Assembly (NCBI GenBank): GCA_044225365.1
Contig: JBGAIQ010000072.1
Span: 1-25,733 of the forward strand
DNA: 25,733 nt
DNA from: Planctomycetota bacterium
GTDB taxonomy: Bacteria > Planctomycetota > B15-G4 > JADJEK01
Direction of reading: 5' to 3'
A model generated the notes under the pieces. That model was not told the DNA's origin and did not search any database. It saw only the letters and a program-made list of their open reading frames with translations. Below are positions 1 through 16,733 of this stretch, in pieces. The stretch's first letter is position 1. Each line of letters starts with the position of its first letter. The translations under genes were made by a program, and so were the position numbers.

Positions 1-173
1 AGAAGATGCCACGCTGGAGCGTGGCGGTCCCGGGGAAGGGGACAAAGAAGAAGATGCCACGCTGGAGCGTGGCGGTCCCGGGGAGGAGACAAAGAAGAAG
101 ATGCCACGCTGGAGCGTGGCGGTCCCGGGGAGGAGACAAAGAAGAAGATGCCACGCTGGAGCGTGGCGGTCCC
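1..173. repeat. Tandem array of REP-like hairpin units (47-48 bp period)
   Basis: AGAAGATGCCACGCTGGAGCGTGGCGGTCCC starts at 1, 49, 96 and 143. The linkers are near-identical. Each unit contains the palindrome GCCACGCT-GG-AGCGTGGC. The array may extend beyond the window start. Confidence 0.9.
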
Positions 174-186
174 GAAGAGGTCTGCC

Positions 187-868: not shown

Positions 869-2962
869 GTGAAACGAGTCGTCCTCGCCGAGAAGCCGTC
901 CGTCGCGCGTGACCTCGCGCAGTACCTGAAGGCGCGTACGCGCCAGGAAGGGTACTTCGAGGGCTCCGATCTTGCGGTCACCTGGGCGTTCGGCCACCTC
1001 GTCGGGCTCAAGGAGCCGCACGAGTACGACCCAGTGTGGAAGCGTTGGTCGGTGGAGTCCCTGCCGATCGTTCCGCCGCAGTTCCAACTGAAGGCGATCG
1101 GCGACGACGGGGCGAAGAAGCAGCTCTCGATCGTGGAGTCGCTCTTCAAGAACGCCGAGACGATCGTGTGCGCGACCGACGCGGGGCGCGAGGGCGAGCT
1201 GATCTTCCGCTACATCCTCGAATTTAGCGGAGCGCACGGCAAGAAGGTGCTGCGCCTGTGGCTGAACTCGCTGACCGAAGAAGCGATCCGCGACGCCTTC
1301 ACCAAGCTGAAGCCCGCGACCGAGTACGACCATCTCGCGGCGGCGGCGCGCAGCCGCTCGGAGGCCGATTGGATCGTGGGCCTCAACGGAACGCGCTTCT
1401 TCACCGCGGGGAATCGCCGCTTCGACGTGTTGTGGAGCGTGGGGCGAGTGCAGACCCCCGTGCTCGCGATGATCGTCCTCCGCGACGACGACATCCGTAC
1501 CTTCGTCCCAGAGATCTTCTTCGAACTGATCACGCAGTATCGCGGCGTCGAGTTCTCGCACCCGAACAAGCGCTTCGGGAAGCAGGAGGACGCGGCCGAA
1601 TTGCTCGCGAAGGTGGCGGCGGCGCCCTTCGTCGTGAAGAGCGTTCAGAAGAAGAAGGAGACCGCGAACTGCTCGCAGCTCTTCGACCTCACCGAGCTGC
1701 AGCGCGAGATGAACCGGCGTCACGGAATGTCGGCGCAGGATACGCTCGACGCCGCGCAGCAGCTCTACGAAGCGAAGCTGCTCACCTATCCGCGAACCGA
1801 TTCGCGTTATCTCCCGAACGAGTTCAAGGGGCAGATGCCCGAGTTGCTTCGCAAGCTCGAAGCGATGAAACCCGAGGCGATCGCGCCGCTCGACTTCACC
1901 AAGCTGAAGGAGACCTGCAAGGTCTTCGACGACGCGAAGGTCAGCGACCACCATGCGATCCTGCCGACCGGCAAGATCCCCACATCCCTTCCGCTTCATC
2001 AGGGCCGCGTGTTCGACGCGGTGGTCACTCGCCTCATCGCGATCTTCTACCCGCCGTGCATCAAGGAAGTGACGACCGTCGAAGGCGATGCCGACGGCAC
2101 GTCGTTTCGCGCGCGCGGCGTGCGCGTCGTCGATCCGGGCTTTACCGTGCTGTATCCCAAGAAGGGCGAGAAGGCGGACAAGCCCGACAAGGACGGCGCG
2201 AAGTCGAAGGGCGACGACGACCCGGATGCCGAACAGGAGATGCCGCTCTTCACGAAGGGCGAGAGCGGCCCTCACGAGCCGTCCCTGAAGCAGGGGCAGA
2301 CGCGCCCGCCGCGATCGTTCGACGAGAACACGTTGCTCGCCGCGATGGAGACCGCGGGCAAGCAGATCGAGGACGAGGAACTGCGCGAGGCGATGAAGGA
2401 GAAGGGCCTCGGCACGCCGGCGACGCGGGCGCAGATCATCGAGACGCTGCTGCATCGCGGCTACATCGCGCGCGACAAGAAGCGGCTGCTCGCCACCGAC
2501 CTCGGGAGGTTCCTGATCTACCTGATTCAGGACGAGGCGCTGAAGTCGCCCGAGATGACGGGAGAATGGGAAGCCAAGCTGAAGGCGATCGAGCAGGGCA
2601 AGCTCGATGCGAAGGAATTCATGGCCGGCATCGTGGAGTACACGCGGTCGATCGTGCGCGGCTCGTCGCGCGCGGCGGCGGCCGGGGGCCTGGGCCCTTG
2701 TCCCAAGTGCAAGGCGCCGGTGATCCAGGGCCGTCGCGGCTACGGCTGCTCACGCTGGCGCGAGGGCTGCGATTACGTGCTGTGGATGGAATACAAGGGC
2801 GTGACCCTCCGGCCGGATCAGGCGAAGCAGCTCTTGAACCGCCGCATCCTCCTCGAGCCTCTCGATCTCGAGGGTCGCGGGCCGACGATCCTCGTCCTCG
2901 GCCCCCGCGCCACGCTGCTCGAACTCGCCGTTCCGAGTCGCGATGCGCAGGTGAAGGCGTAA
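869..2962 (+). CDS. topB: DNA topoisomerase III (type IA)
   Basis: Probable GTG start at 869 (VKRVVLAEKPSVARDLA, TOPRIM). Motifs ATDAGREGELIF, SVGRVQTP, catalytic-Tyr motif LLTYPRTDS and GLGTPATRA. C-terminal CPKC...GC..W..GC ribbon. Confidence 0.93.
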   Translation: MKRVVLAEKPSVARDLAQYLKARTRQEGYFEGSDLAVTWAFGHLVGLKEPHEYDPVWKRWSVESLPIVPPQFQLKAIGDDGAKKQLSIVESLFKNAETIVCATDAGREGELIFRYILEFSGAHGKKVLRLWLNSLTEEAIRDAFTKLKPATEYDHLAAAARSRSEADWIVGLNGTRFFTAGNRRFDVLWSVGRVQTPVLAMIVLRDDDIRTFVPEIFFELITQYRGVEFSHPNKRFGKQEDAAELLAKVAAAPFVVKSVQKKKETANCSQLFDLTELQREMNRRHGMSAQDTLDAAQQLYEAKLLTYPRTDSRYLPNEFKGQMPELLRKLEAMKPEAIAPLDFTKLKETCKVFDDAKVSDHHAILPTGKIPTSLPLHQGRVFDAVVTRLIAIFYPPCIKEVTTVEGDADGTSFRARGVRVVDPGFTVLYPKKGEKADKPDKDGAKSKGDDDPDAEQEMPLFTKGESGPHEPSLKQGQTRPPRSFDENTLLAAMETAGKQIEDEELREAMKEKGLGTPATRAQIIETLLHRGYIARDKKRLLATDLGRFLIYLIQDEALKSPEMTGEWEAKLKAIEQGKLDAKEFMAGIVEYTRSIVRGSSRAAAAGGLGPCPKCKAPVIQGRRGYGCSRWREGCDYVLWMEYKGVTLRPDQAKQLLNRRILLEPLDLEGRGPTILVLGPRATLLELAVPSRDAQVKA

Positions 2963-5488: not shown

Positions 5489-8400
5489 ATGAACGACGAG
5501 ACCCTGACCCCGATCGACTCCAAGCTCGAAGAGCTCGTGGCGAAGTGCCTCGAGCGCCTCGAGCGCGAGGGGGATCCGCACATCGATGAGGTGTGCAAGG
5601 ATCATCCGGAGCTGAAGGAGGCGGTCGCGCGGCGCTTCGCGATGCTGAAGCGCATCGGTCTGCTCTCGGCGTCGCAGACGGCGGGGGGCGGGCAGCCTGG
5701 TCCCGAGAAGGACTTTCCCGAGCTGCTCGGTGACTTCCGCCTGGTGCGAAGGGTCGGCGGCGGAGGAATGGGCGTCGTCTATCTCGCGAAGCAGGAATCG
5801 CTCGGCCGCGAGGTGGCGCTCAAGCTGATTCGACCCGAGCATCTCTACTTCGAAGGCGCGAAGCTGCGCTTTCGCCGCGAGGTCGAGGCGATCGCGAGCC
5901 TCAGCCACCCCGGCATCGTTCCGATCTACATGGTCGGCGAGGAGAAGGGGATCCCGTACTACGCGATGGAGCACGTCCAGGGCAGTTCGCTCTCGGAGGT
6001 GCTCGAATCGCTCCGCGGCCGCGACGTGAGCGAACTCACCGCGACCGACCTCACGAACGCGATCCAGGGCATCGATCCGATGCAGGCGATCGCGATCGGC
6101 GAGCGGCTCGGGCCGTCCTGGATCCAAGCGTGTCTGCGCGTCCTGCTCCAGGTCGCCGAGGCGCTCGCGCACGCGCACGGGCGCGGGATCATCCATCGCG
6201 ACATCAAGCCGTCGAACATCCTGCTGCGTCGCGACGGCGTGCCGGTGCTCGTCGACTTCGGACTCGCATTGCAACGCGGCGCGTCGAAGCTGACGCAGAC
6301 GGGTTCCGCGCTCGGCTCGCCGCACTACATGGCCCCGGAGATCTGGACGAGCGGCGGCAGCATCGCGGATGCGCGCAGCGACGTGTACGCGCTCGGCGTC
6401 ACGCTCTACGAGATGCTGTCGCTCATCCTCCCGTTCCGCGGGCAGTCCGAGGAGCTGATCGTGAAGGTGCTGTCGGGCGAATTCGACCCGTTGCGCCGCG
6501 CGAATCCGCTCATTCCGTGGGACGTCGAGACGGTCTGCCTCAAGGCGATGGAGGTCGATCCGAATCGCCGCTACGAGTCGGCGGCGGAGTTCGCGCACGA
6601 CCTGCGCAACTTGCTCGAGCTGCGCCCGATCCTCGCCGCGCGTCCCACGCCCTACCTGCGCGTGAAGCGGTTCGTCCAGCGGCGGCCGGGATCGGCGATG
6701 GCCGTCGTCCTCGTCTTCTTCATCACGGTAGTGTTCCCCGTGTTCTATTCCGCGGTCCTGCGCGTGACGAACGCCAAGATCGAGAAGAAGAACGTCGAAC
6801 TCGAGAACCAGACGAAGCTCGCGGTCTCGCATCGCAGCGCGACGCTCGGCGCCATCGACGTGATGATCGCGAGTCTCGCGGATCCGTCGTTGAACGAAGT
6901 GCCCGGAATCGAAAGGCTGCGCACGCGCGCCCTCGAACAGGCCGAGCAGGTGATCAAGAAGGTGACGGCCTCGGGAGAGATCGACGTCGACCTCTCGTGG
7001 CGCGTGCTCAACATCCAGTCGCGGCTGGCCCGCCTCGTCGATGAGCTCGGCGACACGCGCGGCGCCATCGATCGCGCGCAGAAGACGATCGAGGATGCGC
7101 AGCGCGTGTTCGGAAAGCGCCCGCGCGACTGGCGGCCGCGGTTCTTCATCGCCAACGAACGAAGCTTCGCGGCGACGAACCAGCACACGCTGGGCGACGA
7201 CGTCGACGCCGAGAAGGGGATCCTCGAGGCGATCGAGGATTTCAAGCAGGTCGCGATCGACTCGAAGGACTCGGTCGAACCCTTCATCGCGCTCGGGAGC
7301 GGCTACTCGACTCTCGCTTCGATCCACTTCGATCGTGGACGATTCGATGAGGGCGACAAAGCCTACGCGCAGCTCTCGGAGGTCCTGGACACGGCGCTCG
7401 CGAAATGGCCCGACGATGCGCGGCTGAACATGCGTTGGGTCGAAGCGACCTCACAGAACGCGCTCTACTCGGTTCATCGCGGCGATCTCCCCGCCGCGAA
7501 ACGCTTCCTCGATGCCGTCACCAAGAAGTTCGAAGGTCTGAAGGTGGACGACGGAGAGAACTCCGTCGATCGCGAGTTGTCCGCCGTCGTCCGTTCGAAC
7601 ATGGCCGAATGCGCGAAGGTGCTGGACGACACGAAGACCTGCGTGCATTGGCTCGACGGCGCGATCGACGATCTGAAGATCCTCGTGACCCGTTATCCCG
7701 CGCGCCCCAAGTACAAGAAGCTGCTCGCGCGCTGCCTCGGTCAGGTCGCGGAGAATCGGAACTTCCTCGAGTTCGCATCCGACGCGGAGAGGGACGCCGC
7801 ATACGTCCGCTCGCTCAGTGAGTTCGAGCAGGCGATCGAGCTGATGCACTCCCTCATCGCGGCGAAGTACGCCGACCAGGTGCTCGATTCCGACCTCTGC
7901 GCCACGCTCGGTGCCTACGGCGATTGGCTGCAGAAGGGCAAGCGCTACGAAGAGGCGGTCGCGAGATACGAAGAGGCGACGAAGATCCTCGATCGGCGCC
8001 TCGCGGCGAATCCGGACAGTCCCGAGGATCGAAGGAACATCGCCGAGAACCTCACCGGACTCGGGTTCTGTCGCAGCCTGCTCGACGAAGGCGAAGGCGC
8101 CCTCGAATCGATCGCGCGCTCGGCGAGCATCCTCACCGACAGTCACGACAAGAAGCTCCTCGCCGACTCGGAGTTCGGCGACTTGTTCGCCCGCAACCGC
8201 CTCGTTCTCGCCGATTACTATCTGAATCGCAGGGACCATCGCGAGACGCTCGCGGCGATGCTCGACCTCGAGAAGATCGATGTGCCGATCGAGCTGCGTT
8301 TCGACTGCGTTCGCAAGTTGAACTTCAGCATCGAGGACGCGTCGACGGACGGCGCCATCTCGGAGGCCGATCGCAAAGCAGCCATCGCGAAGGCCGCAGC

Positions 8401-8530
8401 GATCGCGGTGACGCATCTCGATGCGATCCTCGCGGGCGGGGGATCGGTCGACGTCTTCCGCGACGAACCCAAGTACGGCGCTTTGCGCGATACCGCCGAA
8501 TTCGCCGCGTGGGCCGAGAAGCATCCCTGA
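5489..8530 (+). CDS. Hanks-type Ser/Thr protein kinase with TM segment and TPR-like C-terminal region
   Basis: Motifs GGGGMGVVY, VALK, HRDIKPSN, DFGLA, GSPHYMAPE and SDVYALG. A hydrophobic segment (AMAVVLVFFITVVFPVFYS) is followed by helical repeats. Confidence 0.93.
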   Translation: MNDETLTPIDSKLEELVAKCLERLEREGDPHIDEVCKDHPELKEAVARRFAMLKRIGLLSASQTAGGGQPGPEKDFPELLGDFRLVRRVGGGGMGVVYLAKQESLGREVALKLIRPEHLYFEGAKLRFRREVEAIASLSHPGIVPIYMVGEEKGIPYYAMEHVQGSSLSEVLESLRGRDVSELTATDLTNAIQGIDPMQAIAIGERLGPSWIQACLRVLLQVAEALAHAHGRGIIHRDIKPSNILLRRDGVPVLVDFGLALQRGASKLTQTGSALGSPHYMAPEIWTSGGSIADARSDVYALGVTLYEMLSLILPFRGQSEELIVKVLSGEFDPLRRANPLIPWDVETVCLKAMEVDPNRRYESAAEFAHDLRNLLELRPILAARPTPYLRVKRFVQRRPGSAMAVVLVFFITVVFPVFYSAVLRVTNAKIEKKNVELENQTKLAVSHRSATLGAIDVMIASLADPSLNEVPGIERLRTRALEQAEQVIKKVTASGEIDVDLSWRVLNIQSRLARLVDELGDTRGAIDRAQKTIEDAQRVFGKRPRDWRPRFFIANERSFAATNQHTLGDDVDAEKGILEAIEDFKQVAIDSKDSVEPFIALGSGYSTLASIHFDRGRFDEGDKAYAQLSEVLDTALAKWPDDARLNMRWVEATSQNALYSVHRGDLPAAKRFLDAVTKKFEGLKVDDGENSVDRELSAVVRSNMAECAKVLDDTKTCVHWLDGAIDDLKILVTRYPARPKYKKLLARCLGQVAENRNFLEFASDAERDAAYVRSLSEFEQAIELMHSLIAAKYADQVLDSDLCATLGAYGDWLQKGKRYEEAVARYEEATKILDRRLAANPDSPEDRRNIAENLTGLGFCRSLLDEGEGALESIARSASILTDSHDKKLLADSEFGDLFARNRLVLADYYLNRRDHRETLAAMLDLEKIDVPIELRFDCVRKLNFSIEDASTDGAISEADRKAAIAKAAAIAVTHLDAILAGGGSVDVFRDEPKYGALRDTAEFAAWAEKHP

Positions 8531-8552: not shown

Positions 8553-8632
8553 GGACCGCCGGGCTCCAGCCCGGCATCCGAATGGACACTTCGTTCCATC
8601 CCAAAAAGCGCCGGGCTGGAGCCCGGCGGTCC
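8553..8632. repeat. REPIN/BIME-like inverted REP doublet
   Basis: Perfect 23-bp inverted repeat GGACCGCCGGGCTCCAGCCCGGC (8553-8575 and 8610-8632). Each arm is itself a hairpin, and the element is intergenic. Confidence 0.88.
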
Positions 8633-8680
8633 CGAAGCGCGAAACTTGCCGCTTCGGCGCGACTGCGTTACAACGACGCC

Positions 8681-9472
8681 ATGGACGATCGCAGGACCGA
8701 ACTCGAGCACCGCTACGGACCGCGCGTCCACGTGCTCGCCGATCCGTTCGTCTGCGGCCTCCTCGGTCGGATCGGCTCGCCCGAGGTGAAGCCACCGCTC
8801 CTGCTCGATCTCGTCCGCACGTTCTACGCGACGATGCTCGCACGAGTCGTCGCGAGCGAGTTCCCCGCGACGGAACAGGCGATCCACACGCGCATGCGCG
8901 AGCACACCGAGCGCGGCGTGTGGCGGGGCAAGGCCGTCGCGCGCGACACTCGCGTCGCGATCGCGAATGTGATGCGCGCGGGCAATCTGCCGTCGCTCAC
9001 CTGCTTCGAACGCCTGACGGCGCTCCTGGACCCCGACGGGATCCGCATCGACCACTTCTACTTCGCGCGGCGGACCGACGCGAACGGCCAGGTGATCGGC
9101 GTCGATAGCGCCGGCAGCAAGGTCGGGGGCGGCATCGACGGCGCGGTCCTGCTCATTCCCGATCCGATGGGAGCGACGGGCAGCACCACGATCGAGACGC
9201 TGCGGGCCTATTCGAAGTTGCGAGCCGGTCGGCCTTCCTCCGTCATCGCGATGCATCTCATTGTGACGCCCGAGTACATCCGACGAGTCCTCGAAGAGGC
9301 CCCGGAAGTCGTCATCTACGCGGGCCGCGTCGATCGCGGGATGTCGGATGCGAGCGTCCTCGCGACGATGCCGGGCACGCACCTCGAGCGCGAATCGGGC
9401 CTGAACGAAGTGCAGTACATCGTGCCGGGCGCCGGCGGACTCGGCGAAGTCCTCACCAACGCGTTCGTTTGA
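8681..9472 (+). CDS. upp: Uracil phosphoribosyltransferase-like protein
   Basis: PRPP-binding motif LIPDPMGATGST, VMRAG, and C-terminal LNEVQYIVPGAGGLGE (canonical LNxxGYIVPGLGDAGD). A divergent member of the family. Confidence 0.75.
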   Translation: MDDRRTELEHRYGPRVHVLADPFVCGLLGRIGSPEVKPPLLLDLVRTFYATMLARVVASEFPATEQAIHTRMREHTERGVWRGKAVARDTRVAIANVMRAGNLPSLTCFERLTALLDPDGIRIDHFYFARRTDANGQVIGVDSAGSKVGGGIDGAVLLIPDPMGATGSTTIETLRAYSKLRAGRPSSVIAMHLIVTPEYIRRVLEEAPEVVIYAGRVDRGMSDASVLATMPGTHLERESGLNEVQYIVPGAGGLGEVLTNAFV

Positions 9473-9506: not shown

Positions 9507-10499
9507 ATGAGTCGACCCGTCCCCTCCGTTCCTTCCGATCCGCCTGAACCGACGGCCGCGAGCGGACTCGCACTGCTTCGTCACCTCGAGATCACGCGCC
9601 TGCGTTTCGTGGCGCGCGCCATGGACGCGATCGATCTTCGTGAGTTCCCCGGCAGTGCGCTGCGGGGCGGGCTGCTCGTCGCGCTGTTCGATGTCGGTTG
9701 CGTCGCGGTCCATCGCCAGTGCGAGGAGTGCGCTTTTCTCGCCGACTGCGCGGTTCCGCGCGTGCTCGGCCGGGAGTCGCCGCGAACGGATCGCGGGAAC
9801 CATGGGTTCTTCACCCGTCCTTATCGGATCACCACGGCGCATGCGCCTCCGCGAATCGAGCGCGGAGCGACGTTCGAATTCGGAATCGATCTCTTCGGCG
9901 AAGCCGCGGAATTCGCTGCGCTCCTCCGCACGGCGGTGATTCGGCTCGGCGAGCGGGGGCTGGGGCGGCGCCGCAGCCGGTTCGATGTGGAATCCGGGGG
10001 AGATTTCGAGGCCTGCGCGCCACGGCTCATGGGCGACGAGATCGCGGCTCGAATCCGGGATCTGCCGACCGATCGGCTCCTGCTTTGCTTCGATTCGCCG
10101 CTTCGTTTGCAGGCAAGAGGGCACGCCCTCACCGAATTTTCCTTTCTCTCTCTCATGGCCAACCTGTTGCGGAGAGCGTCCGGTCTGATGGAATCGCACG
10201 GACGGGCACAGGTCGAGGCTTTGGCCCGGCCGCTCCTGGAGCGAGCTTCTCGAGTCGTGGTGATCGCTGCGTCGTGGACGAAGCGCGATCAGGTACGATT
10301 CTCCTCGCGTCAAGGTCGTGCGATGAATCTCCACGGTGCGCAAGGCCAGGTCGAAGTCGCGGGCGATCTCGCGGCTTTCGTGCCCTGGCTCGCGTTCGGT
10401 GAGATCGCGGGCGCCGGCAAGGGCACGACCTTCGGCCACGGATCGATGCGAGTGCTCGCGACGAACCCTCCGCCCGCGATGGGCGAATCGAGTGGATAG
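9507..10499 (+). CDS. cas6: CRISPR pre-crRNA processing endoribonuclease Cas6 (Cys4-containing type)
   Basis: N-terminal FPGSALRGG and C-x6-C-x2-C-x5-C cluster, plus FDSPLRL and RFSSRQGRAMNLHG. C-terminal G-rich loop GAGKGTTFGHG. Confidence 0.88.
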   Translation: MSRPVPSVPSDPPEPTAASGLALLRHLEITRLRFVARAMDAIDLREFPGSALRGGLLVALFDVGCVAVHRQCEECAFLADCAVPRVLGRESPRTDRGNHGFFTRPYRITTAHAPPRIERGATFEFGIDLFGEAAEFAALLRTAVIRLGERGLGRRRSRFDVESGGDFEACAPRLMGDEIAARIRDLPTDRLLLCFDSPLRLQARGHALTEFSFLSLMANLLRRASGLMESHGRAQVEALARPLLERASRVVVIAASWTKRDQVRFSSRQGRAMNLHGAQGQVEVAGDLAAFVPWLAFGEIAGAGKGTTFGHGSMRVLATNPPPAMGESSG

Positions 10500-10531: not shown

Positions 10532-11806
10532 TTGAATCGCGACGAACTCCGTCAGGATGTGACGAATCGACTCGACCGTGCTGCGGCGCTCGCCGGAGGC
10601 ACGGGAGAGGATCGCATCCTCGTCGGGGCCCGGGTTCATGGCGGACTCGAATACGCCTGTTCGACGACGTCGCGATCGAGCGATACCTCGGCGATGGAAG
10701 CCTCGGGAACGGTGGCCGAGTTCCATGGTCGTGCCGACGCGCTCGCCCGCGCCGTTGCGGCCGCGGCCCAGGCGCTCGGCACGGCAGCGTTCGGCTCTTC
10801 GCATCCGCTCGACTCCTTCCTCCGCATCGGCAACGACCGCTTCGTCGCCGTGATGCCGAGTTCGACCGAAGTCGACGCGCGCCTCACCGAGACGCGAGCG
10901 ACGATCGAAGCGGAATGGCTCGGCTGCTTCGAAGGCGCGGTCGATATCGCAATCGCCTGGGTGCGCACGACGACCAGCGAATTGAAGAACGCCGCCACGG
11001 CGGCGCGACTCGAGGAAGGCCTCACCCGTCGCGAGCGCACGCCCGCGCTCGACGCCCTCAGCGGATCGAATCCGTTCGGTCCCTTCGCCAGCGCGCCGCC
11101 GGTTCCTGGCCAGCGCGAGGCATTCGAGACGAAGCCTCTCGGTGTGCTGGTCTCGCGTCGCCTGCATCGAAGCGTGCCGGGCGACGACCTCGTCGCGGTC
11201 CTCGCCTCCGATCTCGAACGCGTGGAGTGGATCCGCTCGCGCGACGACCTCGCGTCGCTCGCGTCGGCCGCAGGGGACGTGGCGGTGGGGCCGATCTCCT
11301 CCGTCCTTGCGCTCGCTGCCACACCCTTCGAGTTCGAGAGCGCGATCGCGATCGAGGGTGCGCGCGGCGAGCGCGGCCTCGAAGGCGCGCTCGCTCGGGC
11401 CGTCACGGCGCCGAGCGGTCGTTTCCATGTCTTCGGCGTCCGCGCCCAACGCGCGCGCTTCGCCGAGGGCTTCGCACTCGGCAAGGATCTCGCGCCGCTC
11501 GCGCGCTGCGACGAATCCGCGATGCGGGGTCTCCTCGAAGTGGCGATCGCCCTCGACGAAGGAATGGACCGCGCCCCTCTGATGTTGCTGTCGCGCTGGC
11601 GCGCAAGGGCCCACGCCCTCGCCGCTCGCCTCGGCATGAACGAACGCGCGCTGCGGCACGTCACGGACGATGCATCGTCCGAGCGCCGCGCGCTGAAGAC
11701 CCTCATCGGTGAATTCCCGCGCTGGTTCGATACCGGCGCGGCGCGAATTCCCCTCTACTGCGCGTTGCTCGAAGCGGGCGTCGCGACGGAGGCATCCTCG
11801 GCATGA
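10532..11806 (+). CDS. cas10: Highly degenerate, truncated Cas10/Csm1-like large subunit (424 aa)
   Basis: Sits between cas6 and csm2 with an ATGA overlap. Palm1-like segments ILVGARVHG..FHGRA..SFLRIGNDRFVAVMP..WLGCFEGAVDIAIAWV and Palm2-like segments VAVLASDLE..SAAGDVAVGP..SAIAI..RFHVFG. No HD domain and no GGDD. The TTG start is uncertain. Confidence 0.65.
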   Translation: MNRDELRQDVTNRLDRAAALAGGTGEDRILVGARVHGGLEYACSTTSRSSDTSAMEASGTVAEFHGRADALARAVAAAAQALGTAAFGSSHPLDSFLRIGNDRFVAVMPSSTEVDARLTETRATIEAEWLGCFEGAVDIAIAWVRTTTSELKNAATAARLEEGLTRRERTPALDALSGSNPFGPFASAPPVPGQREAFETKPLGVLVSRRLHRSVPGDDLVAVLASDLERVEWIRSRDDLASLASAAGDVAVGPISSVLALAATPFEFESAIAIEGARGERGLEGALARAVTAPSGRFHVFGVRAQRARFAEGFALGKDLAPLARCDESAMRGLLEVAIALDEGMDRAPLMLLSRWRARAHALAARLGMNERALRHVTDDASSERRALKTLIGEFPRWFDTGAARIPLYCALLEAGVATEASSA

Positions 11807-12507
11807 ACGAGAACGAAACCAACCCCGAAGCGACGTCGAATCCGATGTCCGAAGGATCGCCGCCGCCGGCTCCCCCGGCTGCTCAGGCCCCAGGCGAGGC
11901 CGGATCCAACACAGGTAACGAGGGCGCCGGCCCGGGCGAGAGTCCGAACTCCGCCGGTGGCGACGCAGCCGCGGGCGGCGAACAGCAAGGCCGCGGCGAG
12001 CGCCGCCGCAAGGGCAAGCGCGATCGCGGCAAGGGCGGCGGTCACGGCCCCGGTGGGCAAGGCGGTCCCGGTCGTCCCCAGAACCAAGGCCATCCGCGCG
12101 ACGGGGGTCATGGCGGCGGACATCGCTACGTCGAGGACCGCATCGACATCGACGCGGAGCAGCTCGCCCGCGAGACGCGCTACATCACGGCGGACCGCAT
12201 CCGTCCGATCGCGTTCCTCACCGCGCAGGTTCGGCGGTTGCTCGGATCGCCCGATTCGCACGATCGGCGCGAGGCGCGGCGTTGCCTCGTGCTCTTCAAG
12301 TCGCGCGTCGCGTTCATGGCGGGTCGCGAGACCGGCCGCGAGCGCAGCGGCTTCGTGAAGATCCGCGACTTCATGCTGCGCGGCATCGAACAGGTCACGC
12401 GCGATCGCGAGACGCTCGACCCGCTCCAGGTGCGCAACTTCCTCGATCAAGTCGACGCCTACGTCGGCTACCACCGTTTCCACTGCGACGACCGTCGCCG
12501 CGATTGA
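11803..12507 (+). CDS. csm2: Type III-A small subunit Csm2 (Cas11) with ~105-aa disordered N-terminal extension
   Basis: TAQVRRLL (cf. TSQLRKFY), LFKSRVAFMAGR (cf. LKPKLAYAxGR) and FLDQVDAYVGYHRF (cf. FFEAIVAYHKY). Confidence 0.8.
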   Translation: MNENETNPEATSNPMSEGSPPPAPPAAQAPGEAGSNTGNEGAGPGESPNSAGGDAAAGGEQQGRGERRRKGKRDRGKGGGHGPGGQGGPGRPQNQGHPRDGGHGGGHRYVEDRIDIDAEQLARETRYITADRIRPIAFLTAQVRRLLGSPDSHDRREARRCLVLFKSRVAFMAGRETGRERSGFVKIRDFMLRGIEQVTRDRETLDPLQVRNFLDQVDAYVGYHRFHCDDRRRD

Positions 12508-12524
12508 ACGAGAAGACGACGAAC

Positions 12525-13337
12525 ATGACGAATACGACGAACGACGCAGCGCGCGGCATCTCCTTCAAGGGTCAGGTCGTGATCACCGGCGTGATCGAGT
12601 GCCTGTCCGGCCTCCACGTGGGCGGCAATCGCGACGCCTTGAACCTCTCCGGCGTCGAACTCCCGGTCGCGCGCGACCCGGCGACGCGCATGCCGATCAT
12701 CCCGGGTTCGAGCCTCAAGGGGCGCATGCGCGCCTTGCTCGAAGTGCTGCGCGGGAAAGTCCGCTTCGAGCGCGGTCAGGTCCGCGGTTCCGATGGCGAA
12801 CCCGATTCGATCGACCTGCTGTTCGGTACCTCCGGCAATCGCCGCGGCGGGCCGACCCGCCTCGTCGTGCGCGACGCGACGGCGCTGGCGAGCGATTCGC
12901 GCGAATCGACCGTCGCGTTCTGGGCGGCTCTCGACAGCGAGGGGCTCGGCACCGAGGTGAAGGCCGAAGCGGCGCTCAACCGCGTCACGGCTGCCGCGCA
13001 GCCGCGCCAGGTCGAGCGCGTCGTCGCGGGCTCGCGCTTCGAGTTCGAACTCGTGCTCTCGGTGTTCGATCAGCGGGAGGGCGAGGAACTCCTGCTCAAG
13101 GACGTCGTGATCGCGCTCCAACTCCTCGAGGACAGTTATCTCGGCGGCCACGGCACTCGCGGTTACGGCCGCGTGCGGATCCTCCTGCGCGAGAATCCCG
13201 CGATCGCGACCGCTCGCGATTACGAATCGGGCCGTCGCAAGACGAAGCCGACGGGCGACCTCAAGGCCCTCTCCGATATCGACGCGGACGGATGGGTCGC
13301 CGCGGCGAAGCAGGCGTTCTCCCAGAGCCCAACGTGA
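12525..13337 (+). CDS. csm3: Type III-A backbone RAMP Csm3 (Cas7 group)
   Basis: SGLHVGG..PVARDPATRMPIIPGSSLKGRMRALLE, GPTRLVVRDA, TEVKAEAALNR, PRQVERV and LLEDSYLGGHGTRGYGRV. Confidence 0.95.
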   Translation: MTNTTNDAARGISFKGQVVITGVIECLSGLHVGGNRDALNLSGVELPVARDPATRMPIIPGSSLKGRMRALLEVLRGKVRFERGQVRGSDGEPDSIDLLFGTSGNRRGGPTRLVVRDATALASDSRESTVAFWAALDSEGLGTEVKAEAALNRVTAAAQPRQVERVVAGSRFEFELVLSVFDQREGEELLLKDVVIALQLLEDSYLGGHGTRGYGRVRILLRENPAIATARDYESGRRKTKPTGDLKALSDIDADGWVAAAKQAFSQSPT

Positions 13338-14230
13338 AGCAGATCTACCTGAAGCCGCGGGGCGCGTTTCGCGCGCCCCCGCGTTCCGACACGCTCTTCG
13401 GCCTCATCGCGCATGCGATTCGCGCGGTGTACGGACGGGCGTCCGTCGAACGCTTCCTCGCTCCCACGTTCGAAGAGCCGGCGGGAACGCCGCTCTACGT
13501 GACGTCGGCGTTTCCGTATCTCGAGACGGAGCGAGGTCGGCTTCACTTCTTTCCGGCGCCGTTGTCGCACGGCCCCGCGGGCTACGTCGAGGACGCCGAG
13601 TTCCTCGCTTTCGTGACCGGACAGAAGGCGACGGCGGACATCTCGCCCCTCGCCGAAGGAATGCTGCGAATCGATCGCCAGGGGCACAGCCCCGTGCAGA
13701 CGCTCGCGCGACCGGGAGGCTTCTTCTTCCTCGCCGCGGGCTCGGGTGAGCACTACCTCGAAGCGGCCCTCAAGTATCTCGAACGCTCGGGCTTCGGCGG
13801 CGGAGCATCGCGCGGCTTGTCGCAATTCGATGCCGAGCTCGTCGACACCGAATTCGTCCGTCTCGCCCAGCCGGGCGAATACGGAGTGCTGCTCTCGCTC
13901 ATGCATCCCACCGCGGAGGAGCGCGAGCTGATCGCGCGCGAGGCTCGGGCCGATAGCCGCATCGCGTACGCGATCGAGCGGCGTCAGGGCTATGCCAGCG
14001 CGGCGTTCGTCGATGACGTCGCGGCTGCCGGCAGTGGCCGGAAGTCGGCGCTCGCGATGCTGGCCGAGGGCTCCGTGATCCCGCGCGCCACCTCGCGCGC
14101 CTGCGGCGCGGCGCCGGTCGTCGGCACGGCTCGCGATTCCGCCTCCGAATTCAAGATCGTGCAGTCCGGATTCGGTTTCCTCGTCCCGATCGTCGCGGCC
14201 AAGGTCTCGGCGTCGGAGGCCGTCGCATGA
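13334..14230 (+). CDS. csm4: Type III-A RAMP Csm4 (Cas5 group)
   Basis: GTG start overlaps the csm3 stop (GTGA). Motifs PRSDTLFGLI, YVTSAFPY, FFPAP, G-loop GFGGGASRG and MLAEGSV. Confidence 0.88.
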   Translation: MKQIYLKPRGAFRAPPRSDTLFGLIAHAIRAVYGRASVERFLAPTFEEPAGTPLYVTSAFPYLETERGRLHFFPAPLSHGPAGYVEDAEFLAFVTGQKATADISPLAEGMLRIDRQGHSPVQTLARPGGFFFLAAGSGEHYLEAALKYLERSGFGGGASRGLSQFDAELVDTEFVRLAQPGEYGVLLSLMHPTAEERELIAREARADSRIAYAIERRQGYASAAFVDDVAAAGSGRKSALAMLAEGSVIPRATSRACGAAPVVGTARDSASEFKIVQSGFGFLVPIVAAKVSASEAVA

Positions 14231-16038
14231 AGTTCGTCCTGCGCGTCGAATCTCCGCTGCACCTCGGAATCGGTCAGGACCAGGTCCTGTCGTGGCTCGA
14301 CTATCACCTCGAGGGCAAGATCGTCCACGTGCTCGATTGGGAGAAGGTCTTCGCCGCGGCCAGCGGTGACGACGAAGGCAAGCGCGACGCCATCCTCGAG
14401 AAGTTCACGGCCTGGTGCGACAAGACCACGCGCGCGCTCGACGACGCCGCGGAAGCCGCGCAGAAAGCGCCCTCGCGCGAACGCGCCGAGATCCTGCGAC
14501 GGGCTCGCGATGAATCGAGTCCCGCGCGATTCTTGCGCGACGACCTGTCCGACGACGGCCTCGCGAAGCGCCTGCGCGACGGCGAATTCGATCGCTACAA
14601 GGCCGAGTTCAGCGGCGGGCGCCTCGATCGCCGTCTCGAGATCCGGCGCACCGCGAAGGACGCGCTCGGAAACCCGACCATCCCGGGTAGCGCGATTCGC
14701 GGCCAGATTCGCACGGCGCTGCTGCATTCCGCGCTCGCGACGGGCGGCGCGGAGATCGTCGACAAGGTGATGATGGGCAGTCGTGACGCCGAGGGCTGGA
14801 AGAAGAGCCTCGACGATGCGACGCCGGGTCGCTCGCGCTTCCTGTTCGGCGATGCGCTGGAACGCGCCGTGCTGCGTCCGGGCTCGCGAATGGACGATCC
14901 GCGATTCGACCTGATGCGTCTCCTGCGCATCTCCGATCCCGTGAAGTCGCGCGCGACGCTCATCGTGGTGCGCGAGAGTGCATTCCTCATCAAGCCCGGA
15001 ACCCTCAACCCGCTCGCGCCGGTGGTCTGCGAAGCGATCGCCGAGGGCTCGGAGTTCGAGTTCGAGTTCCGCGCCGACGCGGGGCTCGTGAAGGGCGTCG
15101 CGGCGGCGGACGGCGGGACGCACGCGTTCGTCAGCGACGAGTTCTGGTCGCAGTTCACACGCGTCTTCGGCGTGACGCGCGACGAGGCGAGGACGCTCGA
15201 CGAAGCCGCGCTCGAGGAGCGCATGCTCTCCTCCATCGAGGTCGCATTCGGCAGCCGGTTCAGCGCGATCTCGACTCGCGAACGCGCGTGGTTCGATCGC
15301 GCCGGTGCTCCGGCGGACGCACCGCTGAGGCTGTTCCACGAGGGCCTCGGCAAGATCGAAGGCCGCGTGCCCCTGCGCCTCGGTCTTGGCGCGGGATTGC
15401 ACGGCACGACGCTCGTCCTCGCCCTCGACTCGGACGCCGCCCTCGCCGAGCCGCTCTCGCGCGCTCTTGCGCGCGCCGGACTCGGCCTCGATCCGCGAAA
15501 GCGCCGCGAGCGCGCCGAGCGCGAGAAGATCGCGATCGAGAAGGCTCGGCGCGAAAACTCGCAAGGCGGCAGGGGCGGTCCCGGATTGCGCCCGGAACTC
15601 CTCGCCGAGAAGCGCGATCCCAAGCAATTGCCGGTGTCGCGCCATTTCACGATGGACGGTCCGCTGCCCGACCTCTTCACCGGGTGCGTGACGTTTGCCC
15701 GCGGCGAGATCTCGGGCGAAGCGATCGCACGCGAAGCCACGCTCGCCGCGAAGACTCGCGCATTGCGCGCGCCGCAGCCGGAACCCGAGCGCCGCCCCGA
15801 CCGTCGCCCCGACAACCGTGCCGACGACCGTCGTGGCGGGCCGCCGGGTCAGGGAGGCCGCCGTGACGACCGGGGTCGGCGCCCGGACCGTGATGACCGT
15901 CGAGACGATCGCGGACCGCCGCGTCGCGACTCCGGGCCCGATCGCCGACCGAAGGGCCCGCCGCCCAAGCCGCTTCCCGATCGTCCGGCGAACGAGGACG
16001 AGATCAAGCGTCTGCTCGATCGCTTCGGGCGGCGTTGA
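14227..16038 (+). CDS. csm5: Type III-A RAMP Csm5 (Cas7 group) with R/D/G/P-rich C-terminal tail
   Basis: ATGA overlap with csm4. Motifs ESPLHLGIG, PTIPGSAIRGQIRTALL, DLMRLLRISD and LRLGLGAGLHGTT. Confidence 0.88.
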   Translation: MKFVLRVESPLHLGIGQDQVLSWLDYHLEGKIVHVLDWEKVFAAASGDDEGKRDAILEKFTAWCDKTTRALDDAAEAAQKAPSRERAEILRRARDESSPARFLRDDLSDDGLAKRLRDGEFDRYKAEFSGGRLDRRLEIRRTAKDALGNPTIPGSAIRGQIRTALLHSALATGGAEIVDKVMMGSRDAEGWKKSLDDATPGRSRFLFGDALERAVLRPGSRMDDPRFDLMRLLRISDPVKSRATLIVVRESAFLIKPGTLNPLAPVVCEAIAEGSEFEFEFRADAGLVKGVAAADGGTHAFVSDEFWSQFTRVFGVTRDEARTLDEAALEERMLSSIEVAFGSRFSAISTRERAWFDRAGAPADAPLRLFHEGLGKIEGRVPLRLGLGAGLHGTTLVLALDSDAALAEPLSRALARAGLGLDPRKRRERAEREKIAIEKARRENSQGGRGGPGLRPELLAEKRDPKQLPVSRHFTMDGPLPDLFTGCVTFARGEISGEAIAREATLAAKTRALRAPQPEPERRPDRRPDNRADDRRGGPPGQGGRRDDRGRRPDRDDRRDDRGPPRRDSGPDRRPKGPPPKPLPDRPANEDEIKRLLDRFGRR

Positions 16039-16733
16039 GCGCGAGTTCCCTACCGATGCTCGTCCTCTTCGACATCGATGGCACGATCCTCGTCTCCGGC
16101 GGCGTGGGCGTGAAGGCGTTCCTGTCGAGCTGCACCGAAGTGTTCCAGATGGAAGCGGCGGACGATCGCAAGCGCTTCTCGGGCGGCATGGACCCGCTGA
16201 TCTTCCGCGACCTCTGCGCGCTCCATGGAATCGAGGATTGGCGGCGGCATCACGACGGATTCCGCGAGCGCTACACCCAGCGCCTGCGCGAGCACCTCGC
16301 CCCTCCCGGCATCGTGAAGATCCTTCCGGGCGTGCGGGAGCTCGTCGATGCGATCGATTCCGATCCGCGGTCGTCGCTCGGACTCGTGACGGGGAACTAC
16401 CCCGAGACGGGGCGCTTCAAGCTCGAGCAGACGGGCATCGATCCCGATCGATTCGAAGTCGCCGCGTGGGGCGTCGACGGCGATCATCGGCGCGATCTGC
16501 CGCGCGTCGCGATGGAGCGATTCGCCGCTCGCCGGGGCTCGCCGATCGATCCGTCCAAAGTCGTCGTCATCGGCGACACGCCGCACGACGTCGACTGCGC
16601 GAAGCACAACGGCTGTCGCGCGCTCGGGGTCGGCACCGGGCTCTTTACTCCCGCGGAGCTGAGGGAGTGCGGCGCCGATCTCGCGGTCGAGAATCTCGCC
16701 GATACGAAGGCGATCCTCGACTGGCTGTTCTGA
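16035..16733 (+). CDS. HAD-superfamily phosphatase
   Basis: Motif I LFDIDGT, LGLVTGN and motif IV VIGDTPHD. The start is either TTG 16035 (overlapping the csm5 stop) or ATG 16056. Confidence 0.9.
   Translation: MSASSLPMLVLFDIDGTILVSGGVGVKAFLSSCTEVFQMEAADDRKRFSGGMDPLIFRDLCALHGIEDWRRHHDGFRERYTQRLREHLAPPGIVKILPGVRELVDAIDSDPRSSLGLVTGNYPETGRFKLEQTGIDPDRFEVAAWGVDGDHRRDLPRVAMERFAARRGSPIDPSKVVVIGDTPHDVDCAKHNGCRALGVGTGLFTPAELRECGADLAVENLADTKAILDWLF

Follow-up and report, generated by a model that had tools for sequence, protein, structure and literature searches.

Glutamate in place of the catalytic aspartate of Csm3 in a type III-A-derived operon of a Planctomycetota family

The operon and its genes

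The window analyzed here is the whole of a 25,733-nt stretch of DNA, contig JBGAIQ010000072.1 of the metagenome-assembled genome GCA_044225365.1 (Planctomycetota bacterium), and its forward strand carries six genes in the order cas6-cas10-csm2-csm3-csm4-csm5 (Table 1). The effector set of type III-A (cas10 and csm2 to csm5) is therefore found together with cas6 in a single operon, which is kept in the related loci L002–L010, and in L003, L004, L007, L009, and L010 it is likewise preceded by an ortholog of cas6. At three junctions within the operon the stop codon of one gene overlaps the start codon of the next; the start of csm2 overlaps the stop of cas10, and the GTG start of csm4 overlaps the stop of csm3 (GTGA). 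The csm3 reading frame opens with ATG at 12525 and closes with TGA at 13335–13337, and besides its NCBIfam match the product is recognized by the Pfam RAMPs model PF03787 (E = 1.8e-17). The Csm5 orthologs are all 562–603 aa long in comparison with 364 positions of the family model, which indicates that the extra length of this subunit is conserved. In the window Csm5 ends in a long low-complexity tail rich in Arg, Asp, and Pro, and Csm2 begins with a Gly/Arg/Pro-rich extension of about 100 aa.

Table 1. Features of the window and of related loci; positions are those of the window unless a locus is named.
Feature	Position	Strand	Description
47-nt tandem repeat	1..174		3.7 copies; palindromic hairpin core
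Ser/Thr kinase	5489..8530	+	1013 aa, TPR repeats; upstream of the operon
Uracil-phosphoribosyltransferase-like gene	8582..9472	+	divergent; directly upstream of cas6; PF14681 E = 1.2e-12
cas6	9507..10499	+	330 aa; PF10040 E = 3.4e-14; PADLOC PDLC01477 225.6 bits, residues 26–316
Mini-Cas10	10532..11806	+	424 aa from TTG; no HD domain, no GGDD motif
csm2 (Cas11 small subunit)	11803..12507	+	234 aa; PF03750 E = 1.2e-5 (residues 116–227); PADLOC Csm2 E = 1.2e-7
N-terminal extension of Csm2	11803..12100	+	Gly/Arg/Pro-rich
csm3 (Cas7-family backbone subunit and RNase)	12525..13337	+	270 aa; TIGR02582 191.3 bits, cut-off 90
csm3 codon 45	12657..12659	+	GAA, Glu at the catalytic-Asp position, by alignment to PDB chains
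csm4 (Cas5-family)	13334..14230	+	TIGR01903 89.2 bits, cut-off 55
csm5	14227..16038	+	603 aa; TIGR01899 60.9 bits, cut-off 38.3; PADLOC Csm5 E = 4.8e-20
C-terminal tail of Csm5	~15500..16038	+	Arg/Asp/Pro-rich, low complexity
HAD-family hydrolase	16035..16733	+	overlaps csm5 stop codon
RtcR-type regulator	23342..24991	-	PF06956 E = 4e-74; sigma-54 AAA+ domain
Cas10 ortholog, L004	2915..4870		651 aa
Cas10 ortholog, L003	3376..5151		591 aa
Cas10 ortholog, L007	5102..6340
Cas10 ortholog, L009	8003..9247
Cas10 ortholog, L010	7957..9225
CRISPR array, L097 (G026:C331)	934..2548		16 repeats of 36 nt

Glutamate at the catalytic position of Csm3

The original prediction held that codon 45 of csm3 specifies Glu where Csm3 carries its catalytic Asp, and that conservation is otherwise good along the protein, and both statements are borne out. 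When the window protein is compared by phmmer with PDB chains, Csm3 chains come out on top (E about 1e-39), and residues 14–76 align without a gap to T. onnurineus Csm3. Opposite Glu45 stands Asp in the wild-type chains 6muu_C and 6iqw_C (...GGIDNPV...), Ala in the mutant chains 6mur_C and 6o7h_C (...GGIANPV...), and the engineered Ala in the dead-Csm3 chain 9g9a_D of E. italicus. After the G-x-H-x-G-G strand, where the catalytic Asp is expected, the window protein thus has Glu45, a side chain that is still acidic, and on this alignment Glu45 is at the position of the catalytic Asp. As for the rest of the protein, an alignment of its 29-sequence clade (defined below) contains 69 invariant columns, and the window protein retains every other motif that is invariant in the clade.

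The metagenomic source of the sequence, and the fact that codons for Asp and Glu differ by a single base, could raise the suspicion of GAC having been read as GAA, but such a sequencing or assembly error is ruled out for practical purposes by an independent 1833-nt contig of another assembly (P0001), which encodes a protein identical at 269 of 270 residues (V74L) and has Glu45, by contigs of two further studies, and by four relatives at 69–75% identity that also have Glu. The contigs of the two further studies came from a comparison of Logan contigs of four sequencing runs (X3, X4, X6, and X14) over 12300–13500. In X3 a single contig spans the whole interval with 20 differences, in X4 there is a contig of 712 nt, and both runs, which belong to different studies, show A>G at 12659, so that GAA becomes GAG and Glu is retained. 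The changed csm3 codons are synonymous in 15 of 16 cases in X3 and in 9 of 10 in X4, the sole replacement being V74L. Nearly all codon changes among these strain variants are thus synonymous, and Csm3 is under strong purifying selection. No long piece across the codon-45 site was found in X6. X14, an RNA library, gave one 270-nt contig of depth 2 over the csm2-csm3 junction (12319–12586); it was rejected as evidence of transcription, as the share of the run is small and DNA carry-over is possible. The codon itself is uninformative on the age of the change between Asp and Glu, since GAA is not rare in the operon (63 GAA and 92 GAG).

Aspartate and glutamate among Csm3 homologs

How often Glu occupies this site depends on the sample. 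Among the 120 best homologs in a database clustered at 90% there are 104 Asp, 15 Glu, and one gap, which belongs to a fragment; among the best 150 of 1,881 homologs represented by 50%-identity clusters there are 136 Asp, 7 Glu, 2 Ala, 2 Asn, 2 Ser, and 1 Gly; and the 80 best loci drawn from one genome per GTDB species all have Asp. The original prediction would founder on Glu being common at this site in active Csm3, and the samples go part of the way towards this, in proteins that may or may not be active: Glu is the leading alternative in the 50%-identity sample, and it remains a minority state there. Glu is thus an uncommon residue at the site and yet the leading natural alternative to Asp, and it has arisen repeatedly.

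The clade of the window protein was bounded where bit scores drop from at least 296 to 188 past the first 30 hits, and with the fragment P0007 left out it consists of 29 full-length sequences of Planctomycetota. Position 45 is Asp in 21 of these and Glu in 8, and no other residue occurs, whereas the residues on either side, 44 and 46, are free to vary. Seven of the 90 more distant homologs among the 120 best also have Glu. In a maximum-likelihood tree of the 29 sequences and 6 outgroup rows, seven Glu forms fall into one subclade of eight, the eighth member of which (P0005) has Asp, and another Glu form (P0021) stands apart from this subclade. The tree needs at least three changes, each of them between Asp and Glu, and tip branches within the Glu subclade measure 0.06–0.47 changes per site. 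In the family of the window genome the other 11 genomes all have Asp (GAC in 7 and GAT in 4), and a metagenome scan for close Csm3 loci yielded only one short locus, L082, which is 73% identical and has Asp.

Some differences around the site accompany the residue. In Glu-type Csm3 outside the clade, Pro stands two residues past the catalytic position in 2 of 13 sequences, compared with 88 of the 151 rows aligned (named Glu forms are P0048, P0081, P0098, P0112, P0114, P0134, P0174, P0191, P0199, P0232, and P0266). Glu forms inside the clade keep the Pro, and in them Ser, Ala, or Gly-Val replace the usual Gly-Gly-x before the acid. These differences may represent a co-adjustment of the catalytic loop. 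A connection of Glu with the size of Cas10 was considered and rejected, as mini-Cas10 is also found together with Asp-type Csm3.

A reduced Cas10

The gene between cas6 and csm2 was called at 370 aa (P0267) by the gene caller, and the 424-aa reading frame that starts at TTG has no match above noise in Pfam, NCBIfam, or PADLOC; a profile of its alignment likewise found no match among PDB sequences. Five metagenomic relatives are 42–46% identical, of which four cover all of it and one covers 77%, and this supports the long start. An AlphaFold2 model built on an 11-sequence alignment (A2) reached pLDDT 82.7 and pTM 0.81 and shows a helical domain at the C-terminus in addition to two palm-like units. 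A Foldseek search with this model returned at least 45 Csm1/Cas10 chains (E from 2e-8 to 1e-5, probability 1.0) and after them Cmr2; the match to Csm1 chain 6o78_A has E = 2.4e-8 and probability 1.0, and TMq is 0.5–0.6 for the Csm1/Cas10 chains. Judged from the predicted structure, the product has the Csm1/Cas10 fold.

Two enzymatic parts of a standard Cas10 are missing. The protein begins directly at the first palm-like beta-alpha-beta unit, which leaves no room for an HD domain, and its palm hairpins read IGNDR and SAAGD, as equated by secondary structure and not by superposition, with no conserved GGDD in the 11 sequences of A2. Orthologs at the same place between cas6 and csm2 are 412–422 aa long in one genus (L007, L009, and L010) and longer in L003 and L004 (Table 1). 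The Csm1 model TIGR02578 (753 positions) recognizes L003 over positions 142–299 (E = 1.9e-7), and even the longest ortholog, that of L004, is matched only over positions 143–358 (E = 1.2e-11). We infer from the models and alignments that the cyclase and DNase functions have been lost across the family. The Cas10 orthologs diverge much faster than Csm3, as if whittled to a scaffold.

CRISPR arrays, Cas1, and the source of the guide

There is no CRISPR array in the window, where Rfam also gave no hit, and in the genome as a whole (94% complete, 103 contigs) clusters of REP-like hairpins were found and no array. Metagenome-assembled genomes often lose CRISPR arrays, and for that reason we do not take the absence as proven. 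The genome also has no hit to Cas1 (PF01867) and no second Cas10 that could be found, and no source of crRNA was found in it. With a simple repeat detector, arrays were found within 10 kb in none of 9 loci of the clade (1.8–20.8 kb of DNA each) compared with 28 of 71 ordinary Csm3 loci, and 26 of these 28 have six or more repeats.

Cas1 occurs in two of the twelve genomes of the family and was not found in the other ten. One genome that has it, represented by L097, also contains a true CRISPR array, the repeat of which ends in ATTGAAGC, which we take to be the usual Cas6-type 8-nt handle. This array could feed the Csm complex of that genome in trans. When the CRISPR repeats of two family genomes, that of L097 included, were compared with the genome of the window, only chance matches of 11–16 nt resulted. 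The tandem repeat at the start of the window belongs to the hairpin clusters mentioned above; its core occurs 31 times in the genome (on contigs C2, C22, C23, C40, C90, and others), often in tandem with a second hairpin unit. Such clusters were considered as arrays and rejected, since the intervening "spacers" repeat too, and by their sequence they look REP/BIME-like.

Distribution in the family

An ortholog of this Csm3 is present in all 12 genomes of the family, which belong to 7 genera and are 70–95% complete, and it is missing from all 30 genomes in the four remaining families of the order. The order makes up the whole class, and searches at either level cover the same 42 genomes. Downstream of the operon the same genes follow in L002, L006, L007, and L009, namely a GT9 heptosyltransferase, an ABC transporter, and more genes up to 22849 in the window, and this conserved synteny suggests that the operon has been inherited vertically at a fixed site. 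A literature search for type III-A systems in Phycisphaerae showed no occurrence of the taxon term among the matches listed.

Does Glu45 still support cleavage?

In Csm complexes the crRNA is lined by Csm3 subunits, the thumbs of which interrupt the duplex of guide and target every six nucleotides. The loop with residue 45 approaches the target strand at these breaks. In Csm of S. thermophilus, the D33A mutation served "to eliminate ssRNA cleavage", and the neighboring Csm2 holds the Asp33 loop (PMC6461802). Our literature searches retrieved no assay of Glu-type Csm3 or Cmr4, be it of D-to-E mutants or of natural Glu forms.

The reading that we prefer, with a probability of roughly 0.55, is that Glu45 is a conservative and selected replacement of Asp in a functional Csm3 of a derived type III-A effector, as the comparisons of homologs suggest. 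Such an effector would consist of Cas6, mini-Cas10, and Csm2 to Csm5, and selection in this lineage would retain a carboxylate at position 45, be it that of Asp or of Glu. On the premises of a catalytically competent Glu and of a complex that works with an RNA guide in this genome, the Csm backbone would most likely still cleave the target RNA that it has bound, at the sites usual for Csm3 and perhaps at a different rate. With neither an HD nuclease nor a GGDD cyclase motif in Cas10, cleavage by Csm3 would be the only enzymatic action of the complex on its target. The restriction of the clade to Asp and Glu, and the synonymous GAA/GAG polymorphism, argue for selection of a carboxylate and thereby favor catalysis over a dead Csm; a functionless site should show other residues, and non-acidic forms do exist in the wider family (7 of the 150 cluster representatives).

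The strongest competitor, which we regard as rather unlikely although not to be neglected, is that Glu45 is chemically unable to cut, and that the complex does no more than bind RNA, which might block a transcript or mark it, so that mere binding would replace cleavage as its action on the target. This is the natural dCsm that the original prediction envisaged. Against the preferred reading it can be said that nucleases are often crippled by a change from Asp to Glu, that Glu is a minority state, and that no source of crRNA was found in this genome. The catalytic Asp is indeed replaced, Cas10 has been stripped of its enzymatic parts as well, so that a complex which only binds would fit a general loss of enzymatic functions, and the non-acidic residues just mentioned show that natural forms without the acid occur; in the S. 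thermophilus complex, D33A abolishes cleavage (PMC6461802). On the other hand, a dead site would be expected to drift, but the 29 clade members have Asp or Glu alone, Glu persists in a deep subclade and has been retained through a synonymous change, and P0005 with its Asp lies inside the Glu subclade, as if the two states interconvert as equivalents. Of the original interpretation, the replacement of the catalytic residue stands and reduced cleavage may apply; the stronger claim of binding without cleavage runs counter to the pattern of Asp and Glu, and a natural dCsm is only weakly supported. An acidic residue that probably is still catalytic is the likelier reading of Glu45.

It is improbable that a type III-A system is decaying here and has left the operon as its remnant, with Glu45 as one more neutral lesion. 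Decay might explain why Cas10 shrinks across genera (651, 591, and about 412–424 aa) and evolves so fast, with 42–46% identity where Csm3 has 69–75%, as well as the array and Cas1 that were both not found in the genome of the window. It is difficult to reconcile with six genes that are all intact and translationally coupled, with strong purifying selection on Csm3, with the retention of this Csm3 in every genome of the family across its genera, or with the downstream synteny of the four loci compared.

Comparison with known type III systems

The operon has the same gene set and order as canonical type III-A systems (S. thermophilus, T. onnurineus, E. italicus, and L. lactis; 6ifn, 6muu, 9g9a, and 9ash), its Csm3 is 35–46% identical to ordinary Csm3 proteins with the family motifs kept, and the fold of its Cas10 matches Csm1. 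It differs from them in the Glu of Csm3 and in a Cas10 of 424 aa as opposed to about 700–780 aa. Four features of type III-A are missing, namely the HD domain, the GGDD motif, an adjacent array, and an adaptation module, the last being optional for type III. By its gene content and the similarity of Csm3, the system is best described as a derivative of type III-A.

The type III-E effector Cas7-11 (gRAMP) derives from type III, and as a nuclease it acts on its target solely through RNA cleavage of the Cas7 type, with no signaling by Cas10. If Glu45 is catalytic, the window system would resemble it in that Cas7-type RNA cleavage would be the only nuclease action on the target. However, III-E has its subunits fused into one protein, lacks Cas10 altogether, and has arrays and partners of its own, whereas the window encodes a multi-subunit Csm with a Cas10 remnant.

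Engineered dead Csm complexes, made for structures and RNA binding with Csm3 D33A and its equivalents, are altered at the same position (PMC6461802). In these the residue is Ala and the carboxylate has been removed, while in the window the carboxylate is retained, is one methylene longer, and is under selection.

Reduction of Cas10 is known elsewhere in type III, and Makarova et al. [quoted passage not shown] In the terms of that description, the window system resembles them in reductive evolution, in the loss of the cyclase residues, in having no adaptation module, and in having no genes for cOA sensors beside the operon, where none were seen; III-G loci are likewise described as being without arrays (PMC12669027). 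In III-G and III-H, however, the HD domain is reported as apparently active and the conserved Asp of Cas7 as missing (PMC12669027), whereas here the HD domain is absent and an acidic residue is kept. III-H is further described as having Cas11 fused to Cas10 in place of its C-terminal domain, and III-I a fused Cas7-11i (PMC12669027); in contrast, csm2 is a separate gene in the window, and Csm3, clearly of the III-A type, has a single domain. The separate csm2, the lack of an HD domain, and the conserved acidic residue of Cas7 thus set the system apart from III-H, and it appears to fit none of the reduced subtypes as they are characterized in the text of that classification (PMC12669027).

Possible role of the operon

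The substitution at position 45 is real but mild and probably does not render Csm dead, and the system that surrounds it is more unusual than the residue itself. We propose tentatively, with the odds somewhat against it, that the operon no longer serves adaptive immunity, and that a III-A derivative without array and without Cas1 has been exapted as an RNA-guided or RNA-loaded ribonuclease, or as an RNA-binding machine, for a host function. It would then have been inherited vertically throughout this family of Planctomycetota, in each genome at the one place on the chromosome, with Cas10 as a structural stub and the acidic residue of Csm3, Asp or Glu, as its sole catalytic tool, and its guide would be supplied by some non-CRISPR transcript or, in trans, by arrays. 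The operon, which is present in 12 of 12 family genomes as opposed to Cas1 in 2, and which has a Cas10 devoid of HD domain and cyclase motif and no array in sight, is a candidate exaptation of a type III effector, and what an orphan Csm complex binds is a question that could be tested directly in cultured relatives.

The residue has a wider bearing as well. Classification papers predict RNA cutting by type III systems from conservation of the catalytic Asp of Cas7 (PMC12669027). Glu, the most common natural alternative, makes up about 5% of the Csm3 clusters sampled, and this bears on whether such systems are read as RNA-cutting. Csm3 of the Glu type could also provide a Csm that is naturally tuned to be slow or fast.

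Neighboring genes

The uracil-phosphoribosyltransferase-like gene lies 35 nt upstream of cas6, has an N-terminal extension, and scores 55 bits with TIGR01091, for which the cut-off is 208. It adjoins cas6 in L007, L009, and L010, which represent only one other genus, with 62–63% identity, and it was not found upstream of the operon in L003 or L004; by its position it could be a partner of the system or just a neighbor. The HAD-family hydrolase gene does not occur at that position in the relatives compared, where the interval from csm5 to the GT9 gene ranges from 263 nt to 7 kb. The Ser/Thr kinase matches the PD-T4-6 kinase models of PADLOC with up to 247 bits, which may reflect generic similarity of the kinase domain only, and in the relatives compared its gene was not found beside the operon. 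The RtcR-type regulator lies downstream of csm5, at a distance of about 7 kb. RtcR systems respond to damaged RNA ends, and by analogy a link between this regulator, with its RtcR/CARF-related N-terminal domain, and a Csm complex that cuts RNA is conceivable.
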